Below, piece by piece: positions 6,486 through 57,735 of a stretch of DNA of 64,000 bases. Source of the stretch: Candidatus Buchananbacteria bacterium (GTDB lineage Bacteria > Patescibacteriota > Patescibacteriia > Buchananbacterales > UBA6539); NCBI GenBank assembly GCA_041664165.1, contig JBAYLH010000004.1, positions 11,974 to 75,973 of the forward strand. The letters are read 5' to 3'. Positions within the stretch are counted from its first letter, which is position 1, and each line of letters starts with the position of its first letter. The translations under genes were made by a program, and so were the position numbers. A model generated the notes under the pieces. The model was not told the DNA's origin, did no database searches, and worked only from the letters and a program-made list of their open reading frames with translations.

Positions 6486-6860
6486 TTAGAATAAGCCGAT
6501 AAAATTATTAAATATTTCATAGCCGATTATGACTGGCAAAATCAACCAAAACAAAAACAGGCAAAAAATCAGTATGGCCCAGACAAAAAGCAGAATCGTC
6601 CGGGCGATAATCTGAACGAGACGGATAAAAAAACTGATAATTCGGCCTTCAATGTCATATTGGCCGAACATCGGCGTAAAAAGATTTTTTGCCCAAACCG
6701 CCAGGCCAAGCCGTTCTTGCTGACCCTCAATTTCATTAAGGCAGTAAGCAGCGGTTTTAATCAGTCCCTTGGTGTACCACCAAATCGGCCAATACAAAAT
6801 ATCGCCGATTAAGTCGATAGCGACGTACTTGAAGCTGGTAAAGGCGAGGTTATTTGTCAT
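6486..6860 (-). CDS. hypothetical small membrane protein (operonic with the ClpC-like gene, 2-bp gap)
   Basis: 124-aa ORF; C-terminal 60 aa strongly hydrophobic; it ends 2 bp before the ClpC-like start. Confidence 0.5.
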   Translation of the reverse strand: MTNNLAFTSFKYVAIDLIGDILYWPIWWYTKGLIKTAAYCLNEIEGQQERLGLAVWAKNLFTPMFGQYDIEGRIISFFIRLVQIIARTILLFVWAILIFCLFLFWLILPVIIGYEIFNNFIGLF

Positions 6861-6927
6861 ATTTTAGTTAGTATCTTGACATTAATTATAACATAAAATT
6901 ATTTAAATAAAAATATGAGTTGAAGAT

Positions 6928-7144
6928 AAAAAAAAGAGCCCGCTTTGATGTATCCATACATTTAGGCAGGCTAGAAATGTTTCTGCATTGTTGCTTGGGG
7001 CCTCAAGTTTTAAGAGCTGACAAATCGGCATGCCTGCCTTGTCCTCCCAAGATAGGAGGAAACGACTCAGCTGAGTCTCTTTTGCCGCTCATTGCATGGG
7101 CAGGGGTACGCCATTTGGCGCTACCCGGGCAGAACATTTCGTGG
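6928..7144 (-). ncRNA. candidate structured small RNA of unassigned identity (6S-like long-hairpin architecture), ~215 nt
   Basis: GC-rich island in AT-rich intergenic DNA. Minus-strand TTGACA and TGnTATAAA promoter elements lie upstream. 5' segment CGAAAUGUUCUGC pairs with 3' segment GCAGAAACAUUUC; several internal perfect hairpins (GACUCAGCUGAGUC; CCUCC-UAUCUUG-GGAGG). Ends in hairpin AGCCUGC...GCGGGCU followed by U8. Only spurious ORFs (track 6920..7147). Confidence 0.4.
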
Positions 7145-7151
7145 TGATAAC

Positions 7152-7178
7152 TTTATATCAAAAATGAATATCTGTCAA
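7152..7178 (-). promoter_or_regulatory. putative sigma70-type promoter for the 6S-like RNA candidate
   Basis: Minus strand TTGACA, 15-nt spacer, extended -10 TGaTATAAA; the predicted start coincides with the paired 5' end of the RNA. Confidence 0.3.
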
Positions 7179-7180
7179 CT

Positions 7181-7504
7181 TTAAGTAATCGCGAAAAGTT
7201 TGTTAAATTCTTTTTTTATCTCTTCTTTTATCCTTTCTTCGGAAAAAAAAGTCGTAACAATTCCCGGCAGATCGCTTTCGCCGATTACTTCTTGGTCGGT
7301 TACAATAACCGTTCCGGAAAAATCAATCGTCAAAAATAGCTTTTCAACCGTGAACGAAAAACGCATGAAATTATCTTGCCAGCTTTTTTGCGGGTCAACT
7401 ACCGTCAGACCGGAAAAATTTCTGCCAATCAGTTCGTTGAGTTTATCGTCAATTTTTTGAATTGCCCCGGCTTGAGTGGTTTGGTGCAAAAGCGTGAGTT
7501 TCAT
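7181..7504 (-). CDS. hypothetical protein (107 aa)
   Basis: The track ORF 7181..7774 overlaps the upstream lipoprotein gene in another frame. An internal start MKLTLLHQTTQAGAIQKIDDKLNELIGRNF at 7504 sits 28 nt after the lipoprotein stop and is preferred. No recognisable family. Confidence 0.45.
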   Translation of the reverse strand: MKLTLLHQTTQAGAIQKIDDKLNELIGRNFSGLTVVDPQKSWQDNFMRFSFTVEKLFLTIDFSGTVIVTDQEVIGESDLPGIVTTFFSEERIKEEIKKEFNKLFAIT

Positions 7505-7532
7505 ATTTTTTATAATTATTAATGACAATTCT

Positions 7533-8081
7533 TTACTTATACCACTGGCACTCTTCTGCCACGCAGCCGCAGCTAACGCCATATTTTGTCTGGTCGTAGC
7601 AATCCGTCCATTCGCAAGTGCTGACTTCGCCGTTATTGGCCAAACCACAAATTTGGCCGGAGCAACCGGTGGCAGCGCAATCGGCATCAGTCTGGCATTT
7701 AGCTTTAGTTGAACGGCCGCAAAAGCCATTAAGATTAGTGGTAATTTTTTCCGCCTTGTTGTCTTGGCAATCAATGGCGCAGTTACATTTATCTTCTTTA
7801 TTTTTTACATCACAAACGCCATTGCCGCAATTGCTGCAGACGCCGATATCGCCTGGAGGGTTTGAGGCCTTACAATCGCCATTGTAACCAATATTATACA
7901 TCGGTTTTAAGCTGCCGCAGCAAGTAGCAGGTAAAAAATCATCATTCAGCCTCGTTTGTTCCCCTTCTTTGGCACAAACATCGTTACTCGCTTGATTATT
8001 ATTTATAATTGGTTTTTGAGTGCAACTGCTTAAAATGAATAAGCTGATGATAAAAGCAGAAAGCAAAAATGTTTTTTTCAT
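7533..8081 (-). CDS. cysteine-rich secreted lipoprotein
   Basis: 182 aa. Lipobox LSSC after a hydrophobic signal peptide. About 20 Cys in the mature part in CxC/CxxC-like spacing (CSNCGNGVCD, CNCAIDC, CGCVAEEC). Confidence 0.6.
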   Translation of the reverse strand: MKKTFLLSAFIISLFILSSCTQKPIINNNQASNDVCAKEGEQTRLNDDFLPATCCGSLKPMYNIGYNGDCKASNPPGDIGVCSNCGNGVCDVKNKEDKCNCAIDCQDNKAEKITTNLNGFCGRSTKAKCQTDADCAATGCSGQICGLANNGEVSTCEWTDCYDQTKYGVSCGCVAEECQWYK

Positions 8082-8183
8082 AATTTTTCTTTTTTAATCG
8101 CCTGCCTAATTTCAGACATTAAAGTTAAATAAAAACTAAGATTATTCAGCGTTGCCAATCTCATGCCTAGCGGCTCGTTAGTA
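8079..8183. repeat. direct repeat copy 1: duplicate of the tgt 3' end (~105 bp, 3 mismatches relative to copy 2)
   Basis: cataattt(t/c)tc(c)ttttttaatcgcctgcctaatttcagacattaa(a/g)gttaaataaaaactaagattattcagcgttgccaatctcatgcctagcggctcgttagt; on the minus strand it encodes a Tgt C-terminal remnant ...NEPLGMRLATLNNLSFYLTLMSEIRQAIKKEKL*. Confidence 0.85.
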
Positions 8184-8348
8184 TTGAGATTTCTTCCTTC
8201 TTATTACCATACCGACAATACCAATAATAACCGCAAGTAGCCCTAGTAGTTGGCCGCCAGGGCTATCGTCATATTCACCGTATACAAACATAAACACCCC
8301 AAACAATATGACGATAATTAATCCCGCTTTAGACTTATACCACTTCAT
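8178..8348 (-). CDS. small two-helix membrane protein (56 aa) in the segment inserted between the two tgt-tail repeat copies
   Basis: MKWYKSKAGLIIVILFGVFMFVYGEYDDSPGGQLLGLLAVIIGIVGMVIRRKKSQY*. Its ATG overlaps the tgt stop (TTATGA). Below the 60-aa track cutoff. Two hydrophobic helices and a basic tail. Confidence 0.4.
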   Translation of the reverse strand: MKWYKSKAGLIIVILFGVFMFVYGEYDDSPGGQLLGLLAVIIGIVGMVIRRKKSQY

Positions 8349-9487
8349 AATTTCCCTTTTTTAATCGCCTGCCTAATTTCAGACATTAAGGTTAAATAAA
8401 AACTAAGATTATTCAGCGTTGCCAATCTCATGCCTAGCGGCTCGTTAGTGTGGAAAAGGTGATGCAAATAAGCTTTGGAGTATTGTTTAAGATTAGTTTG
8501 GTTAATTGGCGAAAAGTCTGATTTATATTTGGCATTAGTGATGTTGATGGTTTTATAGAATTTATCATTCTGAGGCCGAAGGCCGAAGAATCTCTGAGAT
8601 CCTTCCCTTTCGCTTCGCTTATGATCAGGATGACGACGAGAAGGTTGACTCCATAAATACAGCCGGCCATGCCTGGCCTCCCGGGTCGGGATGACGCAGT
8701 CAAACATATCAATCCCCTGTTTTACCGCGGCGACGATTTCTTCCGGCCTTCCCAATCCCATTAAGTACCTTGGTTTGTTTTCCGGTAAAAACGGCATGAC
8801 CCAGTTCAAAATTTCTCTCATTTTTTCCCGCGGTTCACCGACAGCCACCCCGCCAATGGCATAGCCGTCAAACTCAAGGGCGGTAATTTCTTTGGCTGAC
8901 TTTAGCCTCAAGTCTTTGTAGATTCCGCCCTGGATTATCCCGAATAATTTTTGATTTTTCGTTTTGAAGCTTTTTTGGCAGCGGCCAGCCCAGCGGGTGG
9001 TTCTTTCCATGGCCAGCTTAACTTTTTGTTTGGCCGCCGGATAGCCGATAACGTCATCAAAAGCCATGGCGATGTCAACGCCGAAGTCTTTTTGAATTTG
9101 CATTGACAATTCCGGAGTTAGCAGATATTTTTTGCCGCTGGTTGGATCGGAAAATTCTACGCCGGCTTCGGAAATTTTTCTCAAATTAGCCAAAGAAAAA
9201 ACCTGAAAGCCGCCGGAATCAGTTAAAATCGGTCCCGGCCAATTCATAAACCGATGCAGTCCGCCGGCTTTTTTAATCAGCGAATTGCCCGGGGACAGCA
9301 TTAAATGATAGGTATTAGCCAAAATAATTTCCGCATTGAGATTTTGCAGCTCGTCAGCCGCTAAATTTTTTACCGCCCCTTTGGTGGCAATCGGCATAAA
9401 AAAAGGACCATCAATATCGCCGTGCGAGGTTGCGAGCTTGGTTAGCCTAGCTTTGGTGCGGGTAGATTTTTTTAAAACTTTAAACAT
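8345..9487 (-). CDS. tgt: queuine tRNA-ribosyltransferase
   Basis: 380 aa. Motifs LTDSGGFQVFSL, GIIQGG, FDCVIPTR, SKAYLHHL. The last ~35 codons lie in repeat copy 2. Confidence 0.85.
   Translation of the reverse strand: MFKVLKKSTRTKARLTKLATSHGDIDGPFFMPIATKGAVKNLAADELQNLNAEIILANTYHLMLSPGNSLIKKAGGLHRFMNWPGPILTDSGGFQVFSLANLRKISEAGVEFSDPTSGKKYLLTPELSMQIQKDFGVDIAMAFDDVIGYPAAKQKVKLAMERTTRWAGRCQKSFKTKNQKLFGIIQGGIYKDLRLKSAKEITALEFDGYAIGGVAVGEPREKMREILNWVMPFLPENKPRYLMGLGRPEEIVAAVKQGIDMFDCVIPTREARHGRLYLWSQPSRRHPDHKRSEREGSQRFFGLRPQNDKFYKTINITNAKYKSDFSPINQTNLKQYSKAYLHHLFHTNEPLGMRLATLNNLSFYLTLMSEIRQAIKKGKL
8346..8450. repeat. direct repeat copy 2 (the authentic tgt 3' end)
   Basis: Near-identical to 8079..8183. 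Confidence 0.85.
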
Positions 9488-19026: not shown

Positions 19027-19820
19027 GTCCAAGTAAGCTAGATGATCGCCCCCCACTTTCTATGTTCTATGTGTATGTTCTAAAACTTAATAACGGCAAA
19101 TTGTATTTCGGATATACTAGCGACCTTCAGCGTAGAATTAAAGAGCATACTAACGGTGAATCAACCTTTACAGCGAGTTGCAGGCCATTAAAATTAGTAT
19201 ATTACGAAGCCTATAACTCAAAAGAGGATGCCCAAAAAAGAGAAAAAGTATTAAAACAGTTTAAGGGTAGCTATGGTCATTTGAAAAAACGCATCCAAAA
19301 AAGTATTGATAGAAAATAGAAATTAGAAAGTGGGGGGAGGAAAGTCCGAACACCACTAGCGGTAGCTCCTAACGGGAGCCGAGAGCAACAAAAGAATAGA
19401 AGCGCTTAAGACTTCTGGACTTTTGCCAAGCTTAGGGCAAGTGCAACAGAAAATATACCGCCCCCCACCTTCTGTTCAACATTAGTGATTTAAAATCACT
19501 TAAGTGAGCGAGGCGGTTCCGCCTTACTATATTCATTGATCTAAAAGATGATGACTAGAAGGTGGGGGGTAAGGTTGAAAACGTGGGCCCGCCTTCGCGC
19601 GGGATAATCCGCTTCGCCATCTTGGCTTCGGCGGAAAAAGTAAGAGCCCACGCACGACAGACTGGTGACAGTCGGTGTGGTAAACTCCTGCCTGGTGCAA
19701 TGCCAAATTTGGTCGGCAGCACGAGCCTAATGGCAACATTAGGCCAAGATAGATGATCATCTCCCCCACTTTTTTAAAAAATGGGGGAACAGAATTCGGC
19801 TTACCGGCTTGCTTGGACAA
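19027..19820 (+). ncRNA. rnpB: RNase P RNA (bacterial type) with large insertions in P3, P12 and J2/4
   Basis: P1 GUCCAAGUAAGC (19027-) pairs with GCUUGCUUGGAC (19807-19818). P2 AGAUGAUC pairs with GAUCAUCU. P4 5' strand AGGAAAGUCCG at 19338. Conserved AGUGCAACAGAAAAUAUACCGCC, GUAAGAGCCCACGCACG, GGUAAACUCCUGCC...GCCAAAUUUGG, and P4 3' strand ACAGAAUUCGGCUUA at 19790. These match the E. coli M1 RNA landmarks recalled from memory (GGAGGAAAGUCCGG, GUGCAACAGAGAGCAAACCGCC, GUAAGAGCGCACC, GGUAAACUCCACC, ACAGAACCCGGCUUA). Confidence 0.8.
19062..19319 (+). CDS. GIY-YIG nuclease-family small protein (YhbQ/UPF0213-like), encoded inside the rnpB P3 loop
   Basis: 85 aa MFYVYVLKLNNGKLYFGYTSDLQRRIKEHTNGES...; pattern YVYVL..NGKLYFGYT.DL.RR..EH matches the GIY-YIG core. 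Flanked by CCCCCCACTTTC (19049-19060) and GAAAGTGGGGGG (19326-19337). Confidence 0.65.
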   Translation: MFYVYVLKLNNGKLYFGYTSDLQRRIKEHTNGESTFTASCRPLKLVYYEAYNSKEDAQKREKVLKQFKGSYGHLKKRIQKSIDRK

Positions 19821-23204: not shown

Positions 23205-23240
23205 TAAAAAAATACCCTTGGCTTCAAGGGTATTTTTTTA
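23205..23240. terminator. bidirectional rho-independent terminator (lepA 3' end)
   Basis: AUACCCUU-GGCUUC-AAGGGUAU, perfect 8-bp stem, A7 upstream and U7 downstream. Confidence 0.7.
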
Positions 23241-25013
23241 TCGTTTTAAAACCGCCAAGAAAGCTTCGGGCGGAATATCAACTTTACCCTGTCCCCTGGC
23301 CATCATTTTCTTTTTACCTTTCTTTTGTTTTTCCAAAAGTTTTCTTTTTCGAGTATAATCGCCGCCGTAAAGCTTGGCGGTAACATCTTTGCGCAAAGCC
23401 GACAAATGTTCGGCCGCAATTACCCGGCCGCCGATTGAAGCCTGAATTTTAATCATAAACATCTGGCGGGGCAAAGTTTCCTTCAAAGATTGGACAATTT
23501 TTCGGCCGAGGTAGTAAGCTTCGTCTTCATAAACCAAAGAGCTTAAGGCCTCAACTTTTTCTTCGGCGACTAAAATATCAAGCCGGACAATATCAACCGA
23601 CTCGTAGGCTAAAAAATCATAATTCAAAGAGGCATAGCCGGAGGAAACGCTTTTCAGCTTATCATAAAAATCAACCAGCAAAGCGGTTAAGGGAACATGG
23701 TAGTGCAAAACCGCAATGCTTTCATCCAGGTATTCCGTATTCAAATAAATTCCCCGTTTAGCCGAAACCAGCTGCATGATGCCGCCGAGATACTCTTTGG
23801 GCGAAAAGATGTCAACTAGCATTATCGGTTCCAAAGTCTTTTCAATCATTTCCGGCTTGGGCAGCTCTTGAGGGCTGTGAATCACTATGTCCTTGCCATT
23901 TTTTAGTTTAATTTGATAAGCAACGCTGGGGACAGTAACGACTAGCTCAAGGCCATATTCCCGCCTTAGCCGCTCCTGAACAACTTCCAAATGAAGCAAC
24001 CCCAAAAAACCGCAGCGAAAGCCAAAGCCTAAAGCCGAAGAATTTTCCGGTTCATAAATTAAAGCGGCATCGTTAAGTTTTAATTTTTCGATGGCTTCTC
24101 TTAATCTTGCATATTGGTCGCCTTCCTTGCAGAATAAACCGGCAAAAACCATCGGCTTAACTTCTTTATAACCCGGCAGCGGCAAAACTTGGCTGAGCGC
24201 GGTAGTAATCGTGTCGCCGACTCGGCAATATTGAATCTCTTTTAAGCCGGTAACAATATAGCCGATTTCGCCTGACTGGAGTTTTTCGGTTTTAACGAAT
24301 TTCGGACTGAAATAGCCGACCTCTAAAACTTCCGACGTTTTTTTGGTTGATAAAAAATTGATTTTATCGCCGACTTTGATTTCGCCGTCGACGACTCGGA
24401 CTTCAGCGATAATGCCTCGGTATTCGTCGAATTTTGAATCAAAAATCAAAGCCCGGATCGGTCGATTCAAATTCGGCTGGGGCGGCTTGACTTTAGAAAT
24501 AACCGCCGCCAAAATTTCCGCTACGCCTTGGCCGGTTTTAGCTGAGACTAATAAAATTTCTTCAGCTTGGCAACCGACCAGCTGGCAAATTTCGTGTTTA
24601 GTTTTTTCCACTTCCGCGTTTGGCAAATCGATTTTATTAATCACTGGAATAATGGTTAAATCCTGTTCAAGCGCCAGATAAAGATTGGCAACGGTTTGCG
24701 CCTGGACTCCTTGAGTGGCGTCAACCAAAAGAATCGCCCCTTCGACGGCCGCCAAACTTCTCGATACCTCGTAGCTGAAATCAACGTGACCGGGAGTGTC
24801 AATCAAATTGAGCTCGTAATTTTGCCATTTCATCCGCACCGGCGTCAGTTTAATCGTGATTCCCCTTTCCCGTTCGATATCCATCTGGTCTAAAATCTGT
24901 TCTTTCATTTCCCGCCCCGAAATCGTGCCGGTCAATTCTAAAAAACGGTCCGCCAAAGTGGACTTTCCGTGATCGATATGAGCAATGATGCAAAAATTTC
25001 TAATTTTATCCAT
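23238..25013 (-). CDS. lepA: elongation factor 4 (LepA)
   Basis: Start taken at MDKIRNFCIIAHIDHGKSTLADR (matches canonical LepA N-termini). The track start at 25040 adds MNTNPLLKF. G-domain and C-terminal LepA domain present. Confidence 0.9.
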   Translation of the reverse strand: MDKIRNFCIIAHIDHGKSTLADRFLELTGTISGREMKEQILDQMDIERERGITIKLTPVRMKWQNYELNLIDTPGHVDFSYEVSRSLAAVEGAILLVDATQGVQAQTVANLYLALEQDLTIIPVINKIDLPNAEVEKTKHEICQLVGCQAEEILLVSAKTGQGVAEILAAVISKVKPPQPNLNRPIRALIFDSKFDEYRGIIAEVRVVDGEIKVGDKINFLSTKKTSEVLEVGYFSPKFVKTEKLQSGEIGYIVTGLKEIQYCRVGDTITTALSQVLPLPGYKEVKPMVFAGLFCKEGDQYARLREAIEKLKLNDAALIYEPENSSALGFGFRCGFLGLLHLEVVQERLRREYGLELVVTVPSVAYQIKLKNGKDIVIHSPQELPKPEMIEKTLEPIMLVDIFSPKEYLGGIMQLVSAKRGIYLNTEYLDESIAVLHYHVPLTALLVDFYDKLKSVSSGYASLNYDFLAYESVDIVRLDILVAEEKVEALSSLVYEDEAYYLGRKIVQSLKETLPRQMFMIKIQASIGGRVIAAEHLSALRKDVTAKLYGGDYTRKRKLLEKQKKGKKKMMARGQGKVDIPPEAFLAVLKR

Positions 25014-25057
25014 AAATTTAAGTAATGGATTAGTATTCAACCCCGCACCAATTCAAA
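24981..25057. repeat. direct repeat copy 1 (authentic lepA 5' end plus ~45 bp upstream)
   Basis: agcaatgatgcaaaaatttctaattttatccataaatttaagtaatggattagtattcaaccccgcaccaattcaaa. Confidence 0.85.
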
Positions 25058-25160
25058 TCATTAGAACCCAACTTTAAAAATAAGTAAGCTACTAGGCGGC
25101 TTCGCACGCAAGAATTAACGGATTTATTTTAAAATCTTTTGCGGAATTTGGTGCGGGGTG

Positions 25161-25237
25161 AGCAATGATGCAAAAATTTCTAATTTTATCCATAAATTTA
25201 AGTAATGGATTAGTATTCAACCCCGCACCAATTCAAA
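25161..25237. repeat. direct repeat copy 2 (duplicate of the lepA 5' end), 180 bp upstream of copy 1
   Basis: 77/77 identical to copy 1. Minus strand gives a 42-codon chimeric ORF (25092..25220) MNTNPLLKFMDKIRNFCIIAHPAPNSAKDFKINPLILACEAA*. Confidence 0.85.
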
Positions 25238-25266
25238 CTAGCAGAAGTTTTTAGTGTTTTACTGAT

Positions 25267-37709: not shown

Positions 37710-37750
37710 TTGATTGACGGAGCCCTTACCTTGATTAATAGTATCCAATT

Positions 37751-37821
37751 CTCGGGGACAGGGAGTCGAACCCCGATTACCAGAGCCAGAATCTGGCGTC
37801 CTACCATTAGACGATCCCCGA
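37751..37821 (-). tRNA. tRNA-Gln (anticodon CUG)
   Basis: UCGGGGA-UC-GUCU-AAUGGUA-GGAC-G-CCAGA-UUCUGGC-UCUGG-UAAU-CGGGG-UUCGACU-CCCUG-UCCCCGA-G. U1-A72 and G73 as in bacterial tRNA-Gln; G18G19 and T-loop UUCGA present; CCA not encoded. Confidence 0.75.
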
Positions 37822-37949
37822 GAATTGGATACTATATTTTCTAAAAATCTTTTGAATACCTGGCCATAACAGGTTAAACATTAGACCTGCCTGTCGGCAG
37901 GCAGGCGATCCCCCGAGTTTTGGGGCTAAACGATTAAATTTAATCTATA

Positions 37950-44265: not shown

Positions 44266-46113
44266 TTAGTTTACTATCTGGTAGCTGGAAATTGTTTCAT
44301 AATCAACATTGAATATTTTCTTGCCCTGATAAGCATTGTCAGGACTTGGCACCGTAGCGATATGTTTAAGAGTCTGGCCGGCGACTTCATAAATTTTCCA
44401 ATCCGGCGTCTTGAGCAAACTCCCGTCGGCGTATTTTTTTACCCCCAAAACCTGGCCGCCGGTTTCAATCGTCGGCAAAGGGCTGAAATAAGCCGCCAAA
44501 TCATCGTCGCTGATATTATAAATCGTTTTACCGGCATACCGGTTTAATTCAGCTAAACCGGTAATTTGTCGCGGGGATTGATTTTCAATGATATAAATTT
44601 TTCTGTTTGGAGTTCGAATCAACGCCCCGTCGGCGTATTTTTTTACCCCCAAAACCTGGCCGGGGACTGAAACTTTTTTATCAGTATATTGAGCCAACAC
44701 GCCATAATCAACGTCATAGATTCTTTTGCCGTTTAATTGATTATCTGGGCCTGCAATCGTATCAAGGTATAATAGCTTGTCATTTTGGACTAAATAAACT
44801 TTCCAGTCGCGAGTCCGCAATAAAGTGCCGTTGGCGTATTTTTTTACCCCCAAAACTTTTTCGCCGGAATTTACCCCTTGATTCTGGTAATAGTTGAAGG
44901 ATTCATTATCAATATTATAAATTTTTTGGCCGGCATAATAATTTTCACTGGCAGCCAGGGTGGCAACATGCCGAATTGTCTGGTCTTCAATAATATAAAC
45001 TTTGCCATCGGCTGTTCTGACGATTGTGCCAACCACGTATTGTTTGACGCCTAAAACTTTACCCGTCGTATCCGGGTGGCTGCCGGTATAATTTAAGCCT
45101 AAATAATTATCAATGGTCCAAAAATCGACATTATTAATCTTTTGCCCTTCATAATTATCTATTAATTCCTGATGAGTGCCGATATAACGAAATTTTTGAT
45201 TTTCAACCCGATAAATTCGCCAGTCGCAAGTTCGCAGCAATTGGCCGTCTCTAAACGTTTTCAGCCCAAAAACCGGATTTTGAGTGTAGCTATAAATGAC
45301 ATTGAAATCAACATCAAAAACCGCCGAGTCATTGTAAGTTCTTTGGCTTAGAGGAATTTTTTTGGAAACATCGACGGCTTTTTGATTTTCGATCTGATAA
45401 AGCTGGCCGTCGCAGGTCCTCAAGTAAGAACCATTAGCATATTCTTTGACGCCTAAAACTTCCGGGCCATAGTGGCAGCGGTCATAAGTTTCAAGAATCG
45501 GCGGCAAGCCCGGCGCATTAATCACGGCAAAAGTACCGATATCATTAACGGCAAAAATAGTTTTATTATCAACATCAAAAATTGCCTTTTGGCCTAAAAC
45601 CCATTGACTGTTATTATTCAAAAAATAAATTCCCAGGCTAGTCAAGTCGGCCGGCAAATTGGCAATGGTTAAATTAACGTTAAGATTCTGCAAAAAATTG
45701 CCGCTTAAATTATTGTTCCGGTCTTTGGCCGACAAATTAAAAATTTTACCGCCGATAATTGCATTCTGACTATCGCAGGGCTGATTGGTCGAATCAAGGC
45801 CGACATAATTTACTTCAAAGATAGTGTAGTCTTTAACCGCTAAAGGCGGGATTTCTAATTCCAATAAAATATCATTGCCTGATCGCCGAATTAACTTACC
45901 ATTGCGATATTGATCCGGAATCACTAGCCAATTATTAATCGCCGTTATCGGCTCTAAAATAGTACTTCCGCCCCCGCCGCCGCCATAGCCAAAAGCGATG
46001 TGGTTATTTAAAAATTCACCGGCGCCAAAATTGCCGGACAAATAGACAATGGCTAAAACCGCCAAGCTGCCTGCTGAAATATTGAATTTTGAGCGTTTAA
46101 GCAATTCAAACAT
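44266..46113 (-). CDS. secreted repeat protein (six tandem ~60-aa VLGVKxYxxG...RTxDxKxY repeats)
   Basis: 615 aa; N-terminal signal/TM; repeats e.g. QVLGVKKYADGSLLKTPDWKIYEVAGQTLKHI. Confidence 0.55.
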   Translation of the reverse strand: MFELLKRSKFNISAGSLAVLAIVYLSGNFGAGEFLNNHIAFGYGGGGGGSTILEPITAINNWLVIPDQYRNGKLIRRSGNDILLELEIPPLAVKDYTIFEVNYVGLDSTNQPCDSQNAIIGGKIFNLSAKDRNNNLSGNFLQNLNVNLTIANLPADLTSLGIYFLNNNSQWVLGQKAIFDVDNKTIFAVNDIGTFAVINAPGLPPILETYDRCHYGPEVLGVKEYANGSYLRTCDGQLYQIENQKAVDVSKKIPLSQRTYNDSAVFDVDFNVIYSYTQNPVFGLKTFRDGQLLRTCDWRIYRVENQKFRYIGTHQELIDNYEGQKINNVDFWTIDNYLGLNYTGSHPDTTGKVLGVKQYVVGTIVRTADGKVYIIEDQTIRHVATLAASENYYAGQKIYNIDNESFNYYQNQGVNSGEKVLGVKKYANGTLLRTRDWKVYLVQNDKLLYLDTIAGPDNQLNGKRIYDVDYGVLAQYTDKKVSVPGQVLGVKKYADGALIRTPNRKIYIIENQSPRQITGLAELNRYAGKTIYNISDDDLAAYFSPLPTIETGGQVLGVKKYADGSLLKTPDWKIYEVAGQTLKHIATVPSPDNAYQGKKIFNVDYETISSYQIVN

Positions 46114-48568: not shown

Positions 48569-50645
48569 CAGTCAATCGGTTAAAACTATTTTCCATCGTT
48601 AAATCAAGATCATAGCTGCCGTCACTGTTTTTTTGGCACCGAAATTTTTCCTCACATAAAACCTTGGCGTCAATCCACCAGCCATTGTCATAATTATTAA
48701 TTTGGAAATGATTAGCTTCGGCAATTGATTTACGATCAGCCGAATAAATCTTCCAGGTTTGACTGTATTTTTTGGGATAAACCAATAGAAATGGATTCTT
48801 GATTCCCTGCAAACTAAGCTGATATTTCCAAACATTAATCGGCTTGGCGGTTAAAGACTCCGGCCTAATTTTTTCGATATTATTTTTGGCATATAGATAG
48901 TAGCTATAAATTCCTTTCGGCGCAAATTCAGAAAGTTTCACGTTATCATACAAATCAACAATATTTTTCGAGCCATCCGAAGGGGCGTAAAAATAAAGCT
49001 GAAATGTGTCAACATTATTCACATCCGAGCTGACAATGGCTTCAAAGGTGTGCCACTGATTATCGGTAGCTTCAAAAGATTCAAAATTATCTTGGTTTTT
49101 ACCGGCTTCATTTTTAAAATTATAATAATACTGGACTTTTCCGCCTTCTAAATTTTTATAATCGAAAGCCAATTTATAAAGCTTGTCATTTTCAATTTTG
49201 ACCGGAAAAGACCGCAAGGTACAGGCAAAATGGTTATTGGAAAAAAGCTGAAGCGCATTTTTTCCCGCCGTGGCGTCCGAAACGATGGCTGAACCGATTT
49301 GGGGCCGGCCGGGAAGATAATTGCTGCAATCAGACACTTCGTTTTCCCATAAACCAGCTTCAAAAGACGGGTTGAAATCTTTTAACAAATTAATATCCGA
49401 GCCAAGATAGCTAAACGAATTATTCCCGCTTTTTAAGGTCAACCAGTTACTAAGGCCAAAATTAGCCGGGAAATCCGACCTAGAAATAGCAACCTCTCGC
49501 TCGGAAACAAAAGCAATTAATCTGACATTATCATATAAATTAACGACATTTTTCGAGCCATCCGATGGGGCATAAAAATAAAGACTGAAACTGTCAACAC
49601 CTTGAATCTGAGGAATAATAACGTTACTGAAGGTGTGCCACTTAAAATCAGCAACATTAACCAGGCCGAATTTTTCCTGCAACTGGTCGGAACCATTTTT
49701 AAAATTATAATAATACTGGACTTTTCCACCTTCTAAATTTTTATAATCGAAAGCCAATTTATAAAGCTTGTCATTTTCAATTTTGACCGGAAAAGACCGC
49801 AAGGTACAGGCAAAATGGTTATTGGAAAAAAGCTGAAGCGCATTTTTCCCCGCCGTGGCGTCCGAAACGATGGCTGAACCGATTTGGGGCCGGCCGGGAA
49901 GATAAGCCGAACAATCAGCCGCCGTTTTTTCCCATAGACCGGCTTCAAAAGAAAAGTTGTCATTTTCCAATAAATTCTTGCCGATTGAGTGGTAAAACCT
50001 GATTTTGTTTTTGAATAAATCAGCCAAAGACGTGCTTGAGTCGTTTTGATAAGTTGAAAAATCAACTACCAAATCCCCGATTTTAATCAGGCTGTTTGCC
50101 TCAACGTCAGTAACGGTAAAAATCACGACATCATTTAATTTGATACTGCTGCCATTCAAGTCCAGTCTTTGACCGGGCAAAATAAAGTTGACTTTTTTGC
50201 CGGCCAAATCGTATTGAATTTTTAAAATACTGTTTTCGTTGACATCAGCTTTAAACTCAAAGGGCAAATTGAAACTAAAGCTATTTATAAACTCAGAAAA
50301 ATTAAACGAGTAATCGCTGAAAATTTTTAAATAGATATTTTCTGCCCCGGTCAAGAGCGGACTTATATTTTTAGCCAGATTAATACCGGCGTTATTAATT
50401 ACCGCCGCTTTTTGGCCGGCCGCTTGGTTTTTTTTAATGTCAGTCAGCAAAAATTCAGAATTAACCGATTTCGATTGATTATTTTTTTGATCGGTAAAAA
50501 CCAAAGAAACGCTGTCGGCAACATACGGCTGATAGCCAAAATTAATATTTTTTTTATAAAAACCCACCAGCAGATAAGAACTGACAAAAATCAGCAATAT
50601 GACCGCCAAAGCTCCTGGTTTAATTTTTAATTTTTTAGCTTTCAT
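48504..50645 (-). CDS. surface-anchored protein with two tandemly duplicated beta-sandwich (carbohydrate-binding-like) modules
   Basis: 713 aa, N- and C-terminal TM anchors; 195-aa internal repeat with a 77-aa stretch identical between the copies. Confidence 0.55.
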   Translation of the reverse strand: MKAKKLKIKPGALAVILLIFVSSYLLVGFYKKNINFGYQPYVADSVSLVFTDQKNNQSKSVNSEFLLTDIKKNQAAGQKAAVINNAGINLAKNISPLLTGAENIYLKIFSDYSFNFSEFINSFSFNLPFEFKADVNENSILKIQYDLAGKKVNFILPGQRLDLNGSSIKLNDVVIFTVTDVEANSLIKIGDLVVDFSTYQNDSSTSLADLFKNKIRFYHSIGKNLLENDNFSFEAGLWEKTAADCSAYLPGRPQIGSAIVSDATAGKNALQLFSNNHFACTLRSFPVKIENDKLYKLAFDYKNLEGGKVQYYYNFKNGSDQLQEKFGLVNVADFKWHTFSNVIIPQIQGVDSFSLYFYAPSDGSKNVVNLYDNVRLIAFVSEREVAISRSDFPANFGLSNWLTLKSGNNSFSYLGSDINLLKDFNPSFEAGLWENEVSDCSNYLPGRPQIGSAIVSDATAGKNALQLFSNNHFACTLRSFPVKIENDKLYKLAFDYKNLEGGKVQYYYNFKNEAGKNQDNFESFEATDNQWHTFEAIVSSDVNNVDTFQLYFYAPSDGSKNIVDLYDNVKLSEFAPKGIYSYYLYAKNNIEKIRPESLTAKPINVWKYQLSLQGIKNPFLLVYPKKYSQTWKIYSADRKSIAEANHFQINNYDNGWWIDAKVLCEEKFRCQKNSDGSYDLDLTMENSFNRLTDVIFGGCAALFIFLLFYARKN
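49108..49319. repeat. intragenic direct repeat copy A (~212 bp)
   Basis: More than 98% identical to 49693..49904 (offset 585 bp = 195 codons). Confidence 0.85.
49693..49904. repeat. intragenic direct repeat copy B
   Basis: See copy A. Confidence 0.85.
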
Positions 50646-55833: not shown

Positions 55834-57735
55834 TTAAATAATAATCAAAATCGCGACTAGAGTAATAAACCCTAAAGTTGATAAAATAAGATGAGGATAT
55901 TGTTTTTTAATTTCAATAAAAATACTAAGCAACAAAGAAATCACGGCAACAACTAAAATAATTTCATAATACCAGCTGGAAACATCAAAAATCAGCTCAA
56001 CATTTTTTAGCGGATATGATTTAATAAATAAGTATTGCTTGATCAGCGAAGGCTTGACCGGAATAATATTTTCCCAGCCCAAATCAATAGTCTCGGCATT
56101 GCCATACTTGTCCTCAACCGTTAAGCTGGGCAAAGTAATGGTATCAAAAACTTTATTTTCAATATTTTTGTAAACTATCATCTGGCCTTCCCATTCTTGA
56201 AAGCCGCCCGATTCCGATTCGGCCGGCGCTAAAGCAATCCGATAATTATCAAAATTAACTTCCGCTTTAACCGCATCGGAGTTTAAATAGACTATTGCTT
56301 TGATAATCTTATCGGCTTGGTTGGTCGGCGAGACTAAAACCACTTTGCTTTTCTGTAAATCAATTTCCGGCGGCGTGCCGTCAACCATTAATTCATAAAT
56401 CGCTGAACTACTATTTTGTTCACCCTTAATCGCGGTAAACTTAATTTTTTGTTCGCCGCCCGGAAAGCTGACTGAAAAATCAAAAAAATCGCTTTGCCAG
56501 GATTGACGTTTAGCCATTTCGACGCCATTACTATAAAGCGTTACTGTTTCCGCTTTCGGTGCGTAAACGATGAATTTAACCGCTTCATTAATTCCGGCCG
56601 AATTACTGCTTGAAAAAATCATCACCGGCGCGGCTAAAACTTCCTTAATCTCCGGCTGAACCGGCAAAGGCTGTTCTAGTGGTTTTACCGGCGCGGCTAA
56701 AACTGCTTTAACCTCAGGTTTGACTGGTAAAGGTTTTACTACCGGTTTTGCCGGCAGGGTTTGATTGATATTTGCCGGTATCGGTTTCACTGCCACTTTT
56801 GCCGGCGGCGGCACTGGCGCCGGTTTAGCTACATTAGTATTAGTTTTTTGCTCGCTTAAAACATTAGCTGGTTTATTCACCGCCGCATTAACTAGTTGGA
56901 TATTGGTATTAGTTATCGCTGGTTCCGGCTTGACTTGAACTGACGGTTCAACCGGTTTTTCGTTTTCCCGCCAATTACCCGCGCTCGGAGCGGCAAGATA
57001 CTGAGCCACCAAGGTCGTATCGTGCTGATTATAATTGCCGGAAATCATGCCAACGCCAATTTCGGAAAAATCCGGATCAATCAAATTGGCATAATGAGTT
57101 TTGCTTCTCGTCCAGGCCGCCACCACTTCATCGGCGCTGGCAAAACCCATGGCTAAATTTTCCCCGGCCACATCGTATTTATAGCCAATGTTGGCAATCC
57201 AATCGGCTAAATCCTTGTTATCCGGTCCGATATGAGCAAAATATTGATTAATTAGCATGTCTTGAGCCTTGGCAAAAGCGGCTTGGTCTAATAGACTGCT
57301 TTCTTTGACTATCGGCACTTTTAAATTCTGTCTGATCCGATTGGTTAATTCAACGACTCTTCGGCTTTCTTGAACCATTAAATTCGGAGTTAGCCAGGCA
57401 CCGGCCGGAAAAAACAAAACAAAGCCGGTAACAACGGCTTGAACCAGCAAAACCGCCACGGTATAAAAAAGCAGCCGGCGCGGCCTTAAAATATAAGGCT
57501 GATAATTGTTGCCGGCATAAGGAATGAATAAATCTTTTAAATCAAGCGGGTCTAACGGATTACGGCCCTGTTTAACTTCGTCGCCATCGGAAACTCCGTC
57601 TTGATCAGTATCGGGATTATTAGGATCAGTCCCGTAGATATTGATTTCTTCATAATCAGTCAAACCATCCTTATCGCTGTCAATATTCAATAAGTTGATA
57701 TAAACTGGTGATTTTTTTCCTTTATTTCTACTCAT
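55834..57735 (-). CDS. CAP (SCP/PR-1-like) domain protein with N-terminal thrombospondin-type-3-like Asp-rich repeats, proline-rich linker and C-terminal TM anchor
   Basis: 633 aa; [12 protein letters not shown]...[17 protein letters not shown]; [15 protein letters not shown] + TM; CAP core [10 protein letters not shown]...GENLA...[16 protein letters not shown]; tandem KP(L/V)PV(K/Q)PE(V/I)K repeats. Confidence 0.65.

Follow-up and report, generated by a model that had tools for sequence, protein, structure and literature searches.

Displacement arrays at Rhs, CdiA and type VI secretion system (T6SS) loci arise when a conserved gene body gains a new 3′ end together with a linked downstream gene, whereby the former 3′ end, with the gene attached to it, comes to lie further downstream in the same orientation; arrays grow as such events recur, no integrase is involved, and homology-facilitated illegitimate recombination (HFIR) or homologous recombination on the conserved part has been proposed as the mechanism (PMC2935791, PMC5361080). 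HFIR has been proposed specifically for the additive effector-immunity arrays of the Vibrio T6SS (PMC5361080) and for the Rhs “orphan” strings (PMC2935791), and the original work on it, as cited within PMC5361080, was done in Acinetobacter, Streptococcus, and Pseudomonas. In an E. coli assay for HFIR, 56 of 60 products gave a positive polymerase chain reaction, indicating that part of the homologous locus had been duplicated, and 14 sequenced products had duplications of 109-950 bp, attributed to a single crossover of a circular molecule with truncated homology (PMC3240628). Here we describe a locus that resembles such arrays at the 3′ end of tgt, the gene for tRNA-guanine(34) transglycosylase (Tgt), in a 64,000-nt stretch of Candidatus Buchananbacteria bacterium DNA (contig JBAYLH010000004.1; “the window” in the following). 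The tail of tgt is present twice, and a gene for a 56-aa membrane peptide lies between the copies. We estimate the probability at about 0.75 that a unit consisting of a tgt tail and the peptide gene was inserted at the end of tgt by tail-anchored recombination, without a dedicated integrase or transposase.

The similarity to Rhs/CdiA/T6SS arrays has limits. The recipient gene here is the housekeeping gene tgt, the tail of which is conserved in sequence (and presumably in function), without a polymorphic toxin tip; the cargo genes encode small membrane or secreted proteins; and the host belongs to a patescibacterial clade (candidate phyla radiation, CPR). No matches to toxin, immunity or defence families were found for the tgt cargo genes in Pfam, NCBIfam, PHROG, and PADLOC. 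Horizontal acquisition with breakpoints in the conserved part, as in displacement arrays, was seen only in relatives of the window, i.e. in the comparisons of L111 with L113 and of L085 with L086/L087 (L numbers designate sequence records). As in HFIR and insertion-duplication, one homologous segment anchors adjacent foreign DNA, and the homologous locus is duplicated around the insert (PMC3240628). However, those are laboratory events with engineered substrates, whereas the tgt locus represents a natural, recurrent footprint in many lineages, with a pathway deduced from sequence. Both sides expected for HFIR have counterparts, the homology side in the tail breakpoints and the joint side in CAACCTTAA/CAACCTCAA of L085 and L111 and possibly in a CTAAC of the window.

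Three further systems share traits with the locus. In the minimal mobile elements of Neisseria, cassettes are exchanged between conserved flanking genes by transformation and replace one another, without duplicated flanks. The tgt locus likewise contains a hypervariable slot between conserved genes (tgt versus p107, p124, and a ClpB-like gene) into which various small cassettes enter via recombination on the flanks, but a fragment of the flank is duplicated and retained. Integron arrays are also made of small promoterless genes in one direction, mostly of unknown function, which are added proximally, are expressed from upstream, and each leave a site remnant. In contrast to integrons, no IntI is encoded within ±10 kb, part of the tgt coding sequence takes the role of the “site”, and the exchange looks homology-dependent. 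Integrase-dependent genomic islands and prophages that occupy the 3′ ends of genes for tRNA, tmRNA or proteins have a direct repeat of the gene end, an incoming copy that restores the gene, and the old end at the far junction, and fragments can accumulate after serial integrations; here, no integrase was seen, the inserts are 0.1-1.4 kb long, and the distal boundary is variable instead of a fixed att core. To specialists in recombination the mechanism itself is familiar; what the locus adds is that insertions accumulate, without a recombinase, in a hotspot at the 3′ end of a housekeeping gene and in a CPR clade.

The features of the locus are as follows. Coordinates are positions in the window, and tgt, the peptide gene, the relic and the lipoprotein gene all lie on the minus strand.

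8345-9487, minus strand: tgt, intact, encoding a 380-aa tRNA-guanine(34) transglycosylase (PF01702, E 7.4e-138; TIGR00430 equivalog)
8345-8449, minus strand: copy 2 of the repeat, the functional tgt tail (last 34 codons plus TGA)
8178-8348, minus strand: gene for the 56-aa peptide with two transmembrane (TM) helices; its stop codon TAA (8178-8180) is supplied by copy 1
8181-8190, minus strand: junction of the peptide gene 3′ end and the relic, where identity between the copies is lost (compared with the junctions of L085, L088, and L111)
8078-8182, minus strand: copy 1 of the repeat, the relic tail; the tgt frame is open up to a TGA that overlaps the lipoprotein ATG (TNEPLGMRLATLNNLSFYLTLMSEIRQAIKKEKL, then stop)
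8078-8164, minus strand: 28-aa open reading frame (ORF) within the relic (MRLATLNNLSFYLTLMSEIRQAIKKEKL, then stop), which begins 13 nt past the stop of the peptide gene and terminates on the lipoprotein ATG
7533-8081, minus strand: gene for a 182-aa Cys-rich lipoprotein with an eight-cysteine-cluster domain (TIGR04289, 52.8 bits versus a cutoff of 50)

The sequence-only reading of this DNA had described direct repeats of about 105 bp with three mismatches, which both a repeat search and a pattern search confirmed, with a shift of the coordinates by one base. At up to three mismatches, the 105-nt direct repeat has exactly two copies on the minus strand, 8078-8182 and 8345-8449. The repeat search returned a two-copy direct repeat at 8077-8187 and 8344-8454 with a spacing of 267 nt, and no match to the 105-nt repeat occurred in 100 dinucleotide-preserving shuffles. 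Copy 2 was indeed found to be the genuine end of a bona fide tgt, comprising its last 34 codons and the stop. In the sequence TTATGA, the tgt stop and the start codon (ATG) of the 56-aa ORF overlap, and the stop of copy 1 overlaps the lipoprotein ATG in the same TTATGA; this double overlap, also noticed before, is borne out by the reading frames. The two copies are 97% identical. One mismatch (8123 versus 8390, ACT/ACC) is synonymous for Thr in the tgt frame, and the other two (8088-8087 versus 8355-8354, GAA/GGG) lead to the ends KKEKL in copy 1 and KKGKL in copy 2.

Two repeats of about 100 nt, one of them at the 3′ end of an ORF, with A in copy 1 versus G in copy 2 at two of the three differences, would also be expected of a diversity-generating retroelement (DGR) with copy 1 as the template repeat and copy 2 as the variable repeat. 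However, the third difference is T to C, and dozens of adenines are unchanged. In addition, relics and functional tails in relatives differ by all types of substitutions (74% identity), Tgt is a housekeeping enzyme and not a ligand-binding DGR target, and precomputed Pfam matches revealed no reverse transcriptase, integrase or transposase gene within ±10 kb. A DGR is therefore scarcely conceivable as the origin of the repeat.

The source of the window is a metagenome-assembled genome, and the copies differ by three single-nucleotide polymorphisms (SNPs), as two strains might. A false duplication could thus have been caused by strain heterogeneity or by a repeat-induced mis-join, and an assembly artefact due to strain heterogeneity had been named as the alternative in the sequence-only reading. 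However, the same locus is present in the ENA MEGAHIT contig k141_1443456 (L175, 177,838 bp; 4 SNPs versus the window in 19.5 kb) and in the JGI contig Ga0376277_0007426 (L001/L176, 26,887 bp; 15 SNPs in 14.9 kb). All SNPs of L175 and L176 lie at 13.6-15.7 kb, and the region from tgt via the peptide gene and the relic to the lipoprotein gene is identical in all three assemblies, which stem from different pipelines or samples. MEGAHIT worked with a k of 141, as read from the contig name, which exceeds the 105 nt of the mismatch-interrupted repeat, and a graph mis-join is ruled out because the joint of the peptide gene and copy 1 lies in sequence that is not common to both copies, without a shared k-mer. 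Homologous structures of tgt, peptide gene and relic also occur in independent samples (see below). An assembly artefact was rejected for these reasons and is highly improbable.

An empty site was found in L003 (JBAZSB010000001), the closest relative in the genome database (Tgt 77% at the amino-acid level), which has no peptide gene beside tgt. In L003, the orthologue of the lipoprotein gene begins with an ATG that overlaps the tgt stop directly (CTATGAAAAAAAC; ...AGA CTA TGA AAA AAA CAC...), exactly as had been predicted from the window alone. Because the succession of copy 1, ATGA and lipoprotein gene in the window reproduces this ancestral junction of tgt and the lipoprotein gene, copy 1 appears to be the displaced native end of tgt, and the lipoprotein gene would be the one that was formerly coupled to the tgt stop. 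The earlier description of copy 1 as a “decoy tail” was thus correct with respect to the overlap of its stop with the lipoprotein ATG, but not with respect to its status as a decoy. Orthologues of the lipoprotein gene are coupled to the functional tail in L003 and L097 and to a relic in L108.

Alternatively, the peptide gene could be native, and the tail could have been copied beyond it by slippage, unequal crossing-over or non-allelic gene conversion. Such a local rearrangement would be compatible with the 97% identity of the copies and the absence of a nameable donor. However, the junction of copy 1 and the lipoprotein gene equals the empty site of L003 base for base at the ATGA overlap, and because of this match the lipoprotein gene, and not the peptide gene, is regarded as the original neighbour of tgt. 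In none of the five closest relatives in the genome database (L003-L007, Tgt 69-77% at the amino-acid level) is the peptide gene located next to tgt, and in more distant genomes it is found in unrelated contexts. Furthermore, foreign sequence lies between the duplicated recipient segments in the L111/L113 comparison, and a tandem duplication predicts the order A-B-A-B, not A-B-A. We consider a purely local origin improbable.

The inserted gene was characterized further. The ORF analysis and an AlphaFold2 (AF2) model uphold the earlier claim that the insert encodes a 56-aa peptide with two TM helices: residues 3-26 and 30-55 form the two helices of a hairpin (predicted local distance difference test score, pLDDT, 84.7). 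The peptide is thus predicted to be a conserved two-helix membrane hairpin, and basic residues at both ends together with an acidic loop suggest an N-in/C-in topology. What had been overlooked is a truncation at the 3′ end and the position of the stop in copy 1. The final two sense codons and the TAA lie inside copy 1, in a frame other than that of tgt. The closest homologues, at 82-91% identity, comprise 62-69 aa and have the terminus ...RRKKTQPPNQKQNQP(NQGRN), while the window peptide ends with ...RRKKSQY. Because these homologues are longer and the stop lies inside copy 1 in another frame, the peptide gene of the window is regarded as 3′-truncated at the junction.

A homology search with the peptide, which had been proposed as a check, retrieved 240 homologues at E≤0.01, nearly all from Patescibacteria where named, and a profile search of 1.84 billion representatives yielded 179 clusters at E≤1e-3 and 75 at E≤1e-10. 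The family members have about 55 aa, with 13 invariant residues centred on F-x-YG-x-x-DDSPGGQ-x-x-GL and an invariant acidic loop, YGEYDDSPGGQ. No curated family scored above its threshold in Pfam, NCBIfam, PHROGs, and PADLOC; the best Pfam match, DUF308, remained below the cut-off (17.1 versus 25 bits), and the match to LPXTG_anchor (16.6 versus 15.9 bits) reflects only the hydrophobic tail. The peptides therefore seem to constitute an uncurated, conserved small-protein family of Patescibacteria, which, with at least 179 sequence clusters, is uncharacterised and worth annotating. No relatives were found in IMG/VR or among GenBank phages, and a phage or virus as the vector of the peptide gene was rejected on this basis. 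Distant homologues (L089/L090, L093, and L094) occur in unrelated contexts, do not adjoin tgt, and lack flanking duplications, showing that the duplication belongs to the tgt site and not to the peptide gene.

The last 50 Tgt residues and the peptide were used as tblastn queries against 175 sequence records (1.03 Mb). All 182 tail matches were on the tgt strand, and 13 of them were second or third matches within a locus. Each of these 13 lies downstream of tgt in direct orientation, and none lies upstream. The control queries, i.e. the reversed tail and 20 shuffled tails, had no match in the 1.03 Mb. Non-redundant lineages with a tail identity of at least 70% and at least 300 nt of downstream sequence numbered about 39, and nine of these have one or two relics; a short, decayed relic was also recognized by eye in L088. 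Besides the window, six lineages have the peptide gene fused to the stop of tgt; in L088, it precedes the decayed relic. Cassettes unrelated to the peptide gene are likewise followed by relics (L104, L116, and L004). Downstream of tgt, the following arrangements were observed:

L085, L086, L087, and L111: peptide gene, then relic
L083/L084 and L102: peptide gene, no clear relic
L104: gene for an 80-aa protein with a C-terminal TM helix, then relic
L116: gene for a 117-aa Cys-rich secreted protein, then relic
L004: genes for a 101-aa lipoprotein and a 336-aa membrane protein, then relic
L098: gene for a tiny TM peptide of 25-30 aa, then relic
L108: 74-aa ORF, relic 1, tiny peptide gene, relic 2, lipoprotein gene, p107

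The gene that starts on the tgt stop differs between lineages, and at least seven unrelated ones were counted. The overlap of the relic end with the next gene in ATGA has been kept in the window, at relic 2 of L108, in L116, and in L004. The two serial relics of L108 appear to record two successive additions before an L003-like arrangement. The relic-bounded inserts of relatives are 0.1-1.4 kb long and, as judged by inspection of the ORFs by eye, encode only small membrane or secreted proteins. The end of tgt thus has the appearance of a recombination hotspot that accumulates small surface-protein genes in related Patescibacteria.

Some smaller observations concern the same loci. Immediately next to tgt, the gene found most often in this clade encodes a member of a second family of tiny proteins (25-30 aa with a single TM helix, e.g. 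MILVLGAILIIIIIGLLVYAAATDD), with nine loci (L113 399-479, L111 1150-1230, L085 922-999, L108 1730-1822, L100, L103, L098, L102, and L104). Members of this family are located behind relics in L111, L104, and L108, and the family is absent from the interval between tgt and p107 of the window. The low-complexity tail of the peptide gene is decaying in two records, with a premature stop (CAA>TAA) in L085 (436-443) and a TAG in L111 (980-990). In L084 (888-900), the peptide stop is separated from the following gene by “G CTATGA” alone, which may be a relic reduced to its last 6 nt.

Direct repeats at a gene's 3′ end, with the gene restored, are the classical signature of islands in the ends of tRNA or protein genes, and the site is used recurrently. 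The locus could therefore be the remnant of an integrase-mediated element, for which the tgt 3′ end served as attB and the replacement tail was carried in attP, the integrase having been deleted later. However, no integrase or excisionase was recognized among the ORFs of the relic-bounded inserts (100-1400 nt) in the nine relic lineages, which were inspected by eye without a Pfam scan, and none is encoded within ±10 kb in the window. The 5′ ends of the relics vary between events (tail residues 2, 5, 8, 11, 16, 20, 25, 28, and 35), while their 3′ ends are constant and equal the tail end, so that there is no single crossover site. Variable 5′ ends combined with constant 3′ ends indicate a truncated homology fragment that entered by a single crossover, and not a fixed att site. 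In addition, the breakpoints coincide with the longest conserved DNA block, and the segment that is repeated in L111/L113 is the recipient's own and not that of an element. On balance, an integrase remnant is unlikely.

Two other kinds of mobile elements were considered and rejected. The 162-nt insert has no terminal inverted repeats, as would be typical of a transposon or a miniature inverted-repeat transposable element, and the duplicated tail segment (105 nt in the window, 59-140 nt in relatives) does not have the fixed length of a target-site duplication. For an integron, no integrase family is present within ±10 kb, and no attC-like inverted repeat exists in the relic or across the cassette; the relic does not fold better than its shuffled versions (z −0.81).

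The breakpoints within the tail were localized by comparison of closely related records. L111 and L113 stem from different samples and have backbones that are 92-98% identical. The site in L113 is empty, i.e. tgt and its TAA are followed by the tiny peptide gene. L111 tracks L113 (95%) up to ...GGGCATGCGATTAGC and then has a dissimilar tail end of 63 nt and the peptide gene; thereafter, it resumes the L113 sequence from 59 nt upstream of the switch and follows it to the contig end (92-98%). L111 thus contains a foreign unit of tail end and gene that is flanked by a duplicate of the recipient's own tail. This filled/empty pair, together with the empty site of L003, supports the earlier proposal that a cassette was integrated at the gene's 3′ end with a replacement copy of that end.

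The second comparison involves L085 and L086/L087, which represent three samples and different assemblers. Their identity is 100% from within tgt (at least 190 nt) across the peptide gene as far as nt 74 of the relic, where the sequences diverge abruptly, at the same block, which encodes NEPLGMRLA. Beyond the breakpoint, the best match of L086/L087 (~80%) is the native tail of L098 with its downstream sequence. The NEPLGMRLA-coding block is the longest stretch of near-identity among the lineages, and breakpoints at this place are as expected for homology-dependent exchange. Both comparisons, L085/L087 as well as L111/L113, suggest that the cassette has spread by homologous recombination.

The other side of the insert has a different character. 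In L085 and L111, the natural end of the peptide gene, CAACCTTAA, abuts the relic where the tail reads CAACCTCAA, a microhomology of 8/9 positions. The junction of the window lies deeper within both partners: QPPNQKQNQP is missing from the peptide, and the relic begins with TNEPLG. In the 10 nt upstream of the repeat, six positions agree with the tail, and CTAAC is present both in peptide homologues and in the tail, and for these reasons the junction is not placeable to the base. The segment 8181-8190 would therefore be either an illegitimate joint or the endpoint of a secondary deletion, a placement as fine as the sequence permits. A separate event and a secondary deletion of about 70 nt in an L085-type junction would fit equally.

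Taken together, an integration via tail homology is favoured because the proximal boundary is constant, the distal boundary is variable, the breakpoints lie in the conserved block, a segment of the recipient is duplicated, and no recombinase gene was found. A unit of about 267 nt, consisting of a fresh tgt tail and the peptide gene with its ATG fused to the tgt stop, would have recombined into the tail. The original 3′ end of tgt would have been pushed downstream to become copy 1, with tgt kept intact. The peptide gene would thereby have taken over the ATGA coupling to the tgt stop, and the lipoprotein gene would have kept the old tail, i.e. the relic, as its leader. The substrate of recombination would be the conserved tgt tail, used either in a single crossover (ends-in, Campbell-type) or in HFIR. 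Uptake of DNA most plausibly preceded the event; Saccharibacteria, which also belong to the Patescibacteria, are naturally competent (PMC10633639/PMC10187176). Once placed between two tails, the cassette would be movable by ordinary homologous recombination into genomes with a similar tgt tail, and repeated events would stack cassettes as units of gene and relic. The structures and the breakpoints are seen in the sequences themselves; transformation, the circular or ends-in intermediate, the donor, and a role of the relic in lipoprotein expression are the elements of this scheme that we infer.

Several points weigh against this scheme. No donor for the insertion in the window is at hand, as no relative with a nucleotide identity above 83% is present in the collections, and segment-wise comparison of the window tgt with 19 relatives gave identities of 55-83% throughout, none of them close enough to reveal a donor tract. 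An empty site of the same species was likewise not found; among ~15 billion proteins, the products of tgt, the peptide gene and the lipoprotein gene each form a singleton 90% cluster. With 97% identity of the copies, the donor must have been very close (conspecific), or gene conversion must have followed later. The left breakpoint of the L111/L113 pair is located downstream of the right one in tail coordinates, a geometry that is impossible by one simple double crossover and needs a circular or ends-in intermediate or two events, neither of which was observed. The breakpoints between L085 and L086/L087 are on short metagenome contigs and could be assembly chimeras at the conserved block. Lastly, a trans-acting recombinase encoded outside the 64 kb is possible.

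The locus shows that small membrane or secreted proteins can have their genes land repeatedly at the 3′ end of a housekeeping gene with no dedicated recombinase. Tail-anchored insertion at tgt would extend the logic of C-terminal displacement, for which polymorphic toxin loci have so far been the main examples. Most Patescibacteria (CPR) have not been cultured, and gene exchange among them has largely been inferred. The locus offers footprints of exchange at base resolution, i.e. filled and empty sites, breakpoints in a conserved coding block of 150 nt, and stacked relics that order successive acquisitions. The recurrence, the filled/empty pairs and the stacked relics make gene flow in Patescibacteria directly testable. 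Tail relics are a simple searchable marker of recent gene gain in these genomes, and for genetic tools in transformable CPR bacteria, the tgt tail may offer a neutral site of integration. A bolder and rather doubtful extension would be that the tgt tail is a homology arm that can be carried from genome to genome: small surface-protein genes between two tails might be self-propagating cassettes that loop out by recombination between the tails and re-enter genomes with a similar tgt without a recombinase, with relics selected because they relay both translational coupling and a promoter to the displaced genes. If this were true, naturally competent Patescibacteria would contain integron-like additive arrays without an integrase.

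A few features bear on the expression of the genes downstream of tgt. No terminator-like site was found that would separate the genes for Tgt, peptide, lipoprotein, and p107. The 28-aa ORF of the relic, the family of which (F5) is present in seven loci, could relay translational coupling to the lipoprotein gene. An AAGGGA motif is located upstream of the peptide start; in the relic, GGG is replaced by GAA, and the motif is gone before the lipoprotein gene. No Rfam match was obtained for 6800-8500 even at E≤1. A promoter-like match lies in the tail:

8408-8436, minus strand: weak sigma-70-like match TAGGCA-17-AATAAT, with a second copy in the relic (8141-8169); a consensus match only

Tgt itself is assigned with confidence by TIGR00430 (460.6 bits, cutoff 306.75), and solved Tgt structures were matched at E 7e-104. 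The functional and the relic tail both encode the conserved C-terminal helices of the enzyme. The proteins of this clade lack the zinc-binding cysteines (CxCxxC) of solved Tgt, and the query reads SPINQT----NLKQYSKAYLHHL at the corresponding place (around 8495-8512). An insert of about 35 residues (279-313; 8549-8653) is hypervariable among relatives, where solved enzymes have a loop of four residues. Its DNA is GC-rich with short hairpins, and the fold is not significant (z −1.3). The hypervariable insert of L085 (1-26) contains a perfect, in-frame, GC-rich hairpin, GTCCCGCCCTTCGCGAAGGGCGGGAC, which is reminiscent of the palindromic elements that insert into coding regions (RPE).

The wider neighbourhood is conserved in the representatives of GTDB in the order DUF11 protein, tgt, variable region, p107, p124, ClpB-like protein. 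The right-hand flank of the variable region is the following gene:

7181-7504, minus strand: p107/p108, a conserved hypothetical gene recognized by synteny, which delimits the variable region between tgt and p124/ClpB-like

The genes called within ±10 kb encode a GIY-YIG protein, a sugar transferase, three glycosyltransferases, DUF4012, the DUF11 protein, Tgt, the peptide, the lipoprotein, p107, p124, the ClpB-like protein, an MraY-type transferase, a spermine-synthase-like protein, GATase, L21, one unannotated protein of 98 aa, and RecR, the latter encoded 10 kb from the locus.

Between p107 and p124, a GC-rich intergenic stretch (6861-7180, minus strand) stands out in the AT-rich genome. It contains a promoter-like TTGACA-17-TAAAGT (7178-7150) and a terminal hairpin followed by a run of U8, and it has a stable fold (−93 kcal/mol, z −4.3) without an Rfam match at E≤1. 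The syntenic spacer of L003 (6200-6556) starts with TTGACA-17-TATAAG, has a fold z of −4.0, and ends with a terminator-like hairpin, with little likeness in primary sequence. The spacer is a candidate for an unclassified small RNA of ~200-250 nt. The sole matches of Rfam and ARAGORN in the 64 kb are an RNase P RNA of bacterial class A (19323-19819, plus strand, 141 bits) and a tRNA-Gln(CTG) (37750-37822, minus strand).

Other repeats of the window include two pairs of direct repeats with a spacing of 585 nt (49109-49391 / 49694-49976, 283 nt, 91%; 48923-49014 / 49508-49599, 92 nt, 77%), which are probably tandem paralogous genes, a repeat family with a spacing of ~200 nt at 44383-45422, and a 63-nt tandem repeat at 56624-56749. 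Finally, the lepA/EF4 gene (23238-25040, minus strand) has a direct repeat of 88 nt (24979-25066 / 25159-25246, 95% identity, spacing 180) that spans its first ~20 codons and ~26 nt of the leader. The copies are separated by ~92 nt of unrelated sequence, and the distal copy opens a chimeric ORF of 42 aa (MNTNPLLKFMDKIRNFCIIAH joined to PAPNSAKDF...); the upstream neighbour is a MurJ-like gene. This duplication may be the same kind of recombination scar, in this case at the 5′ end of a gene.

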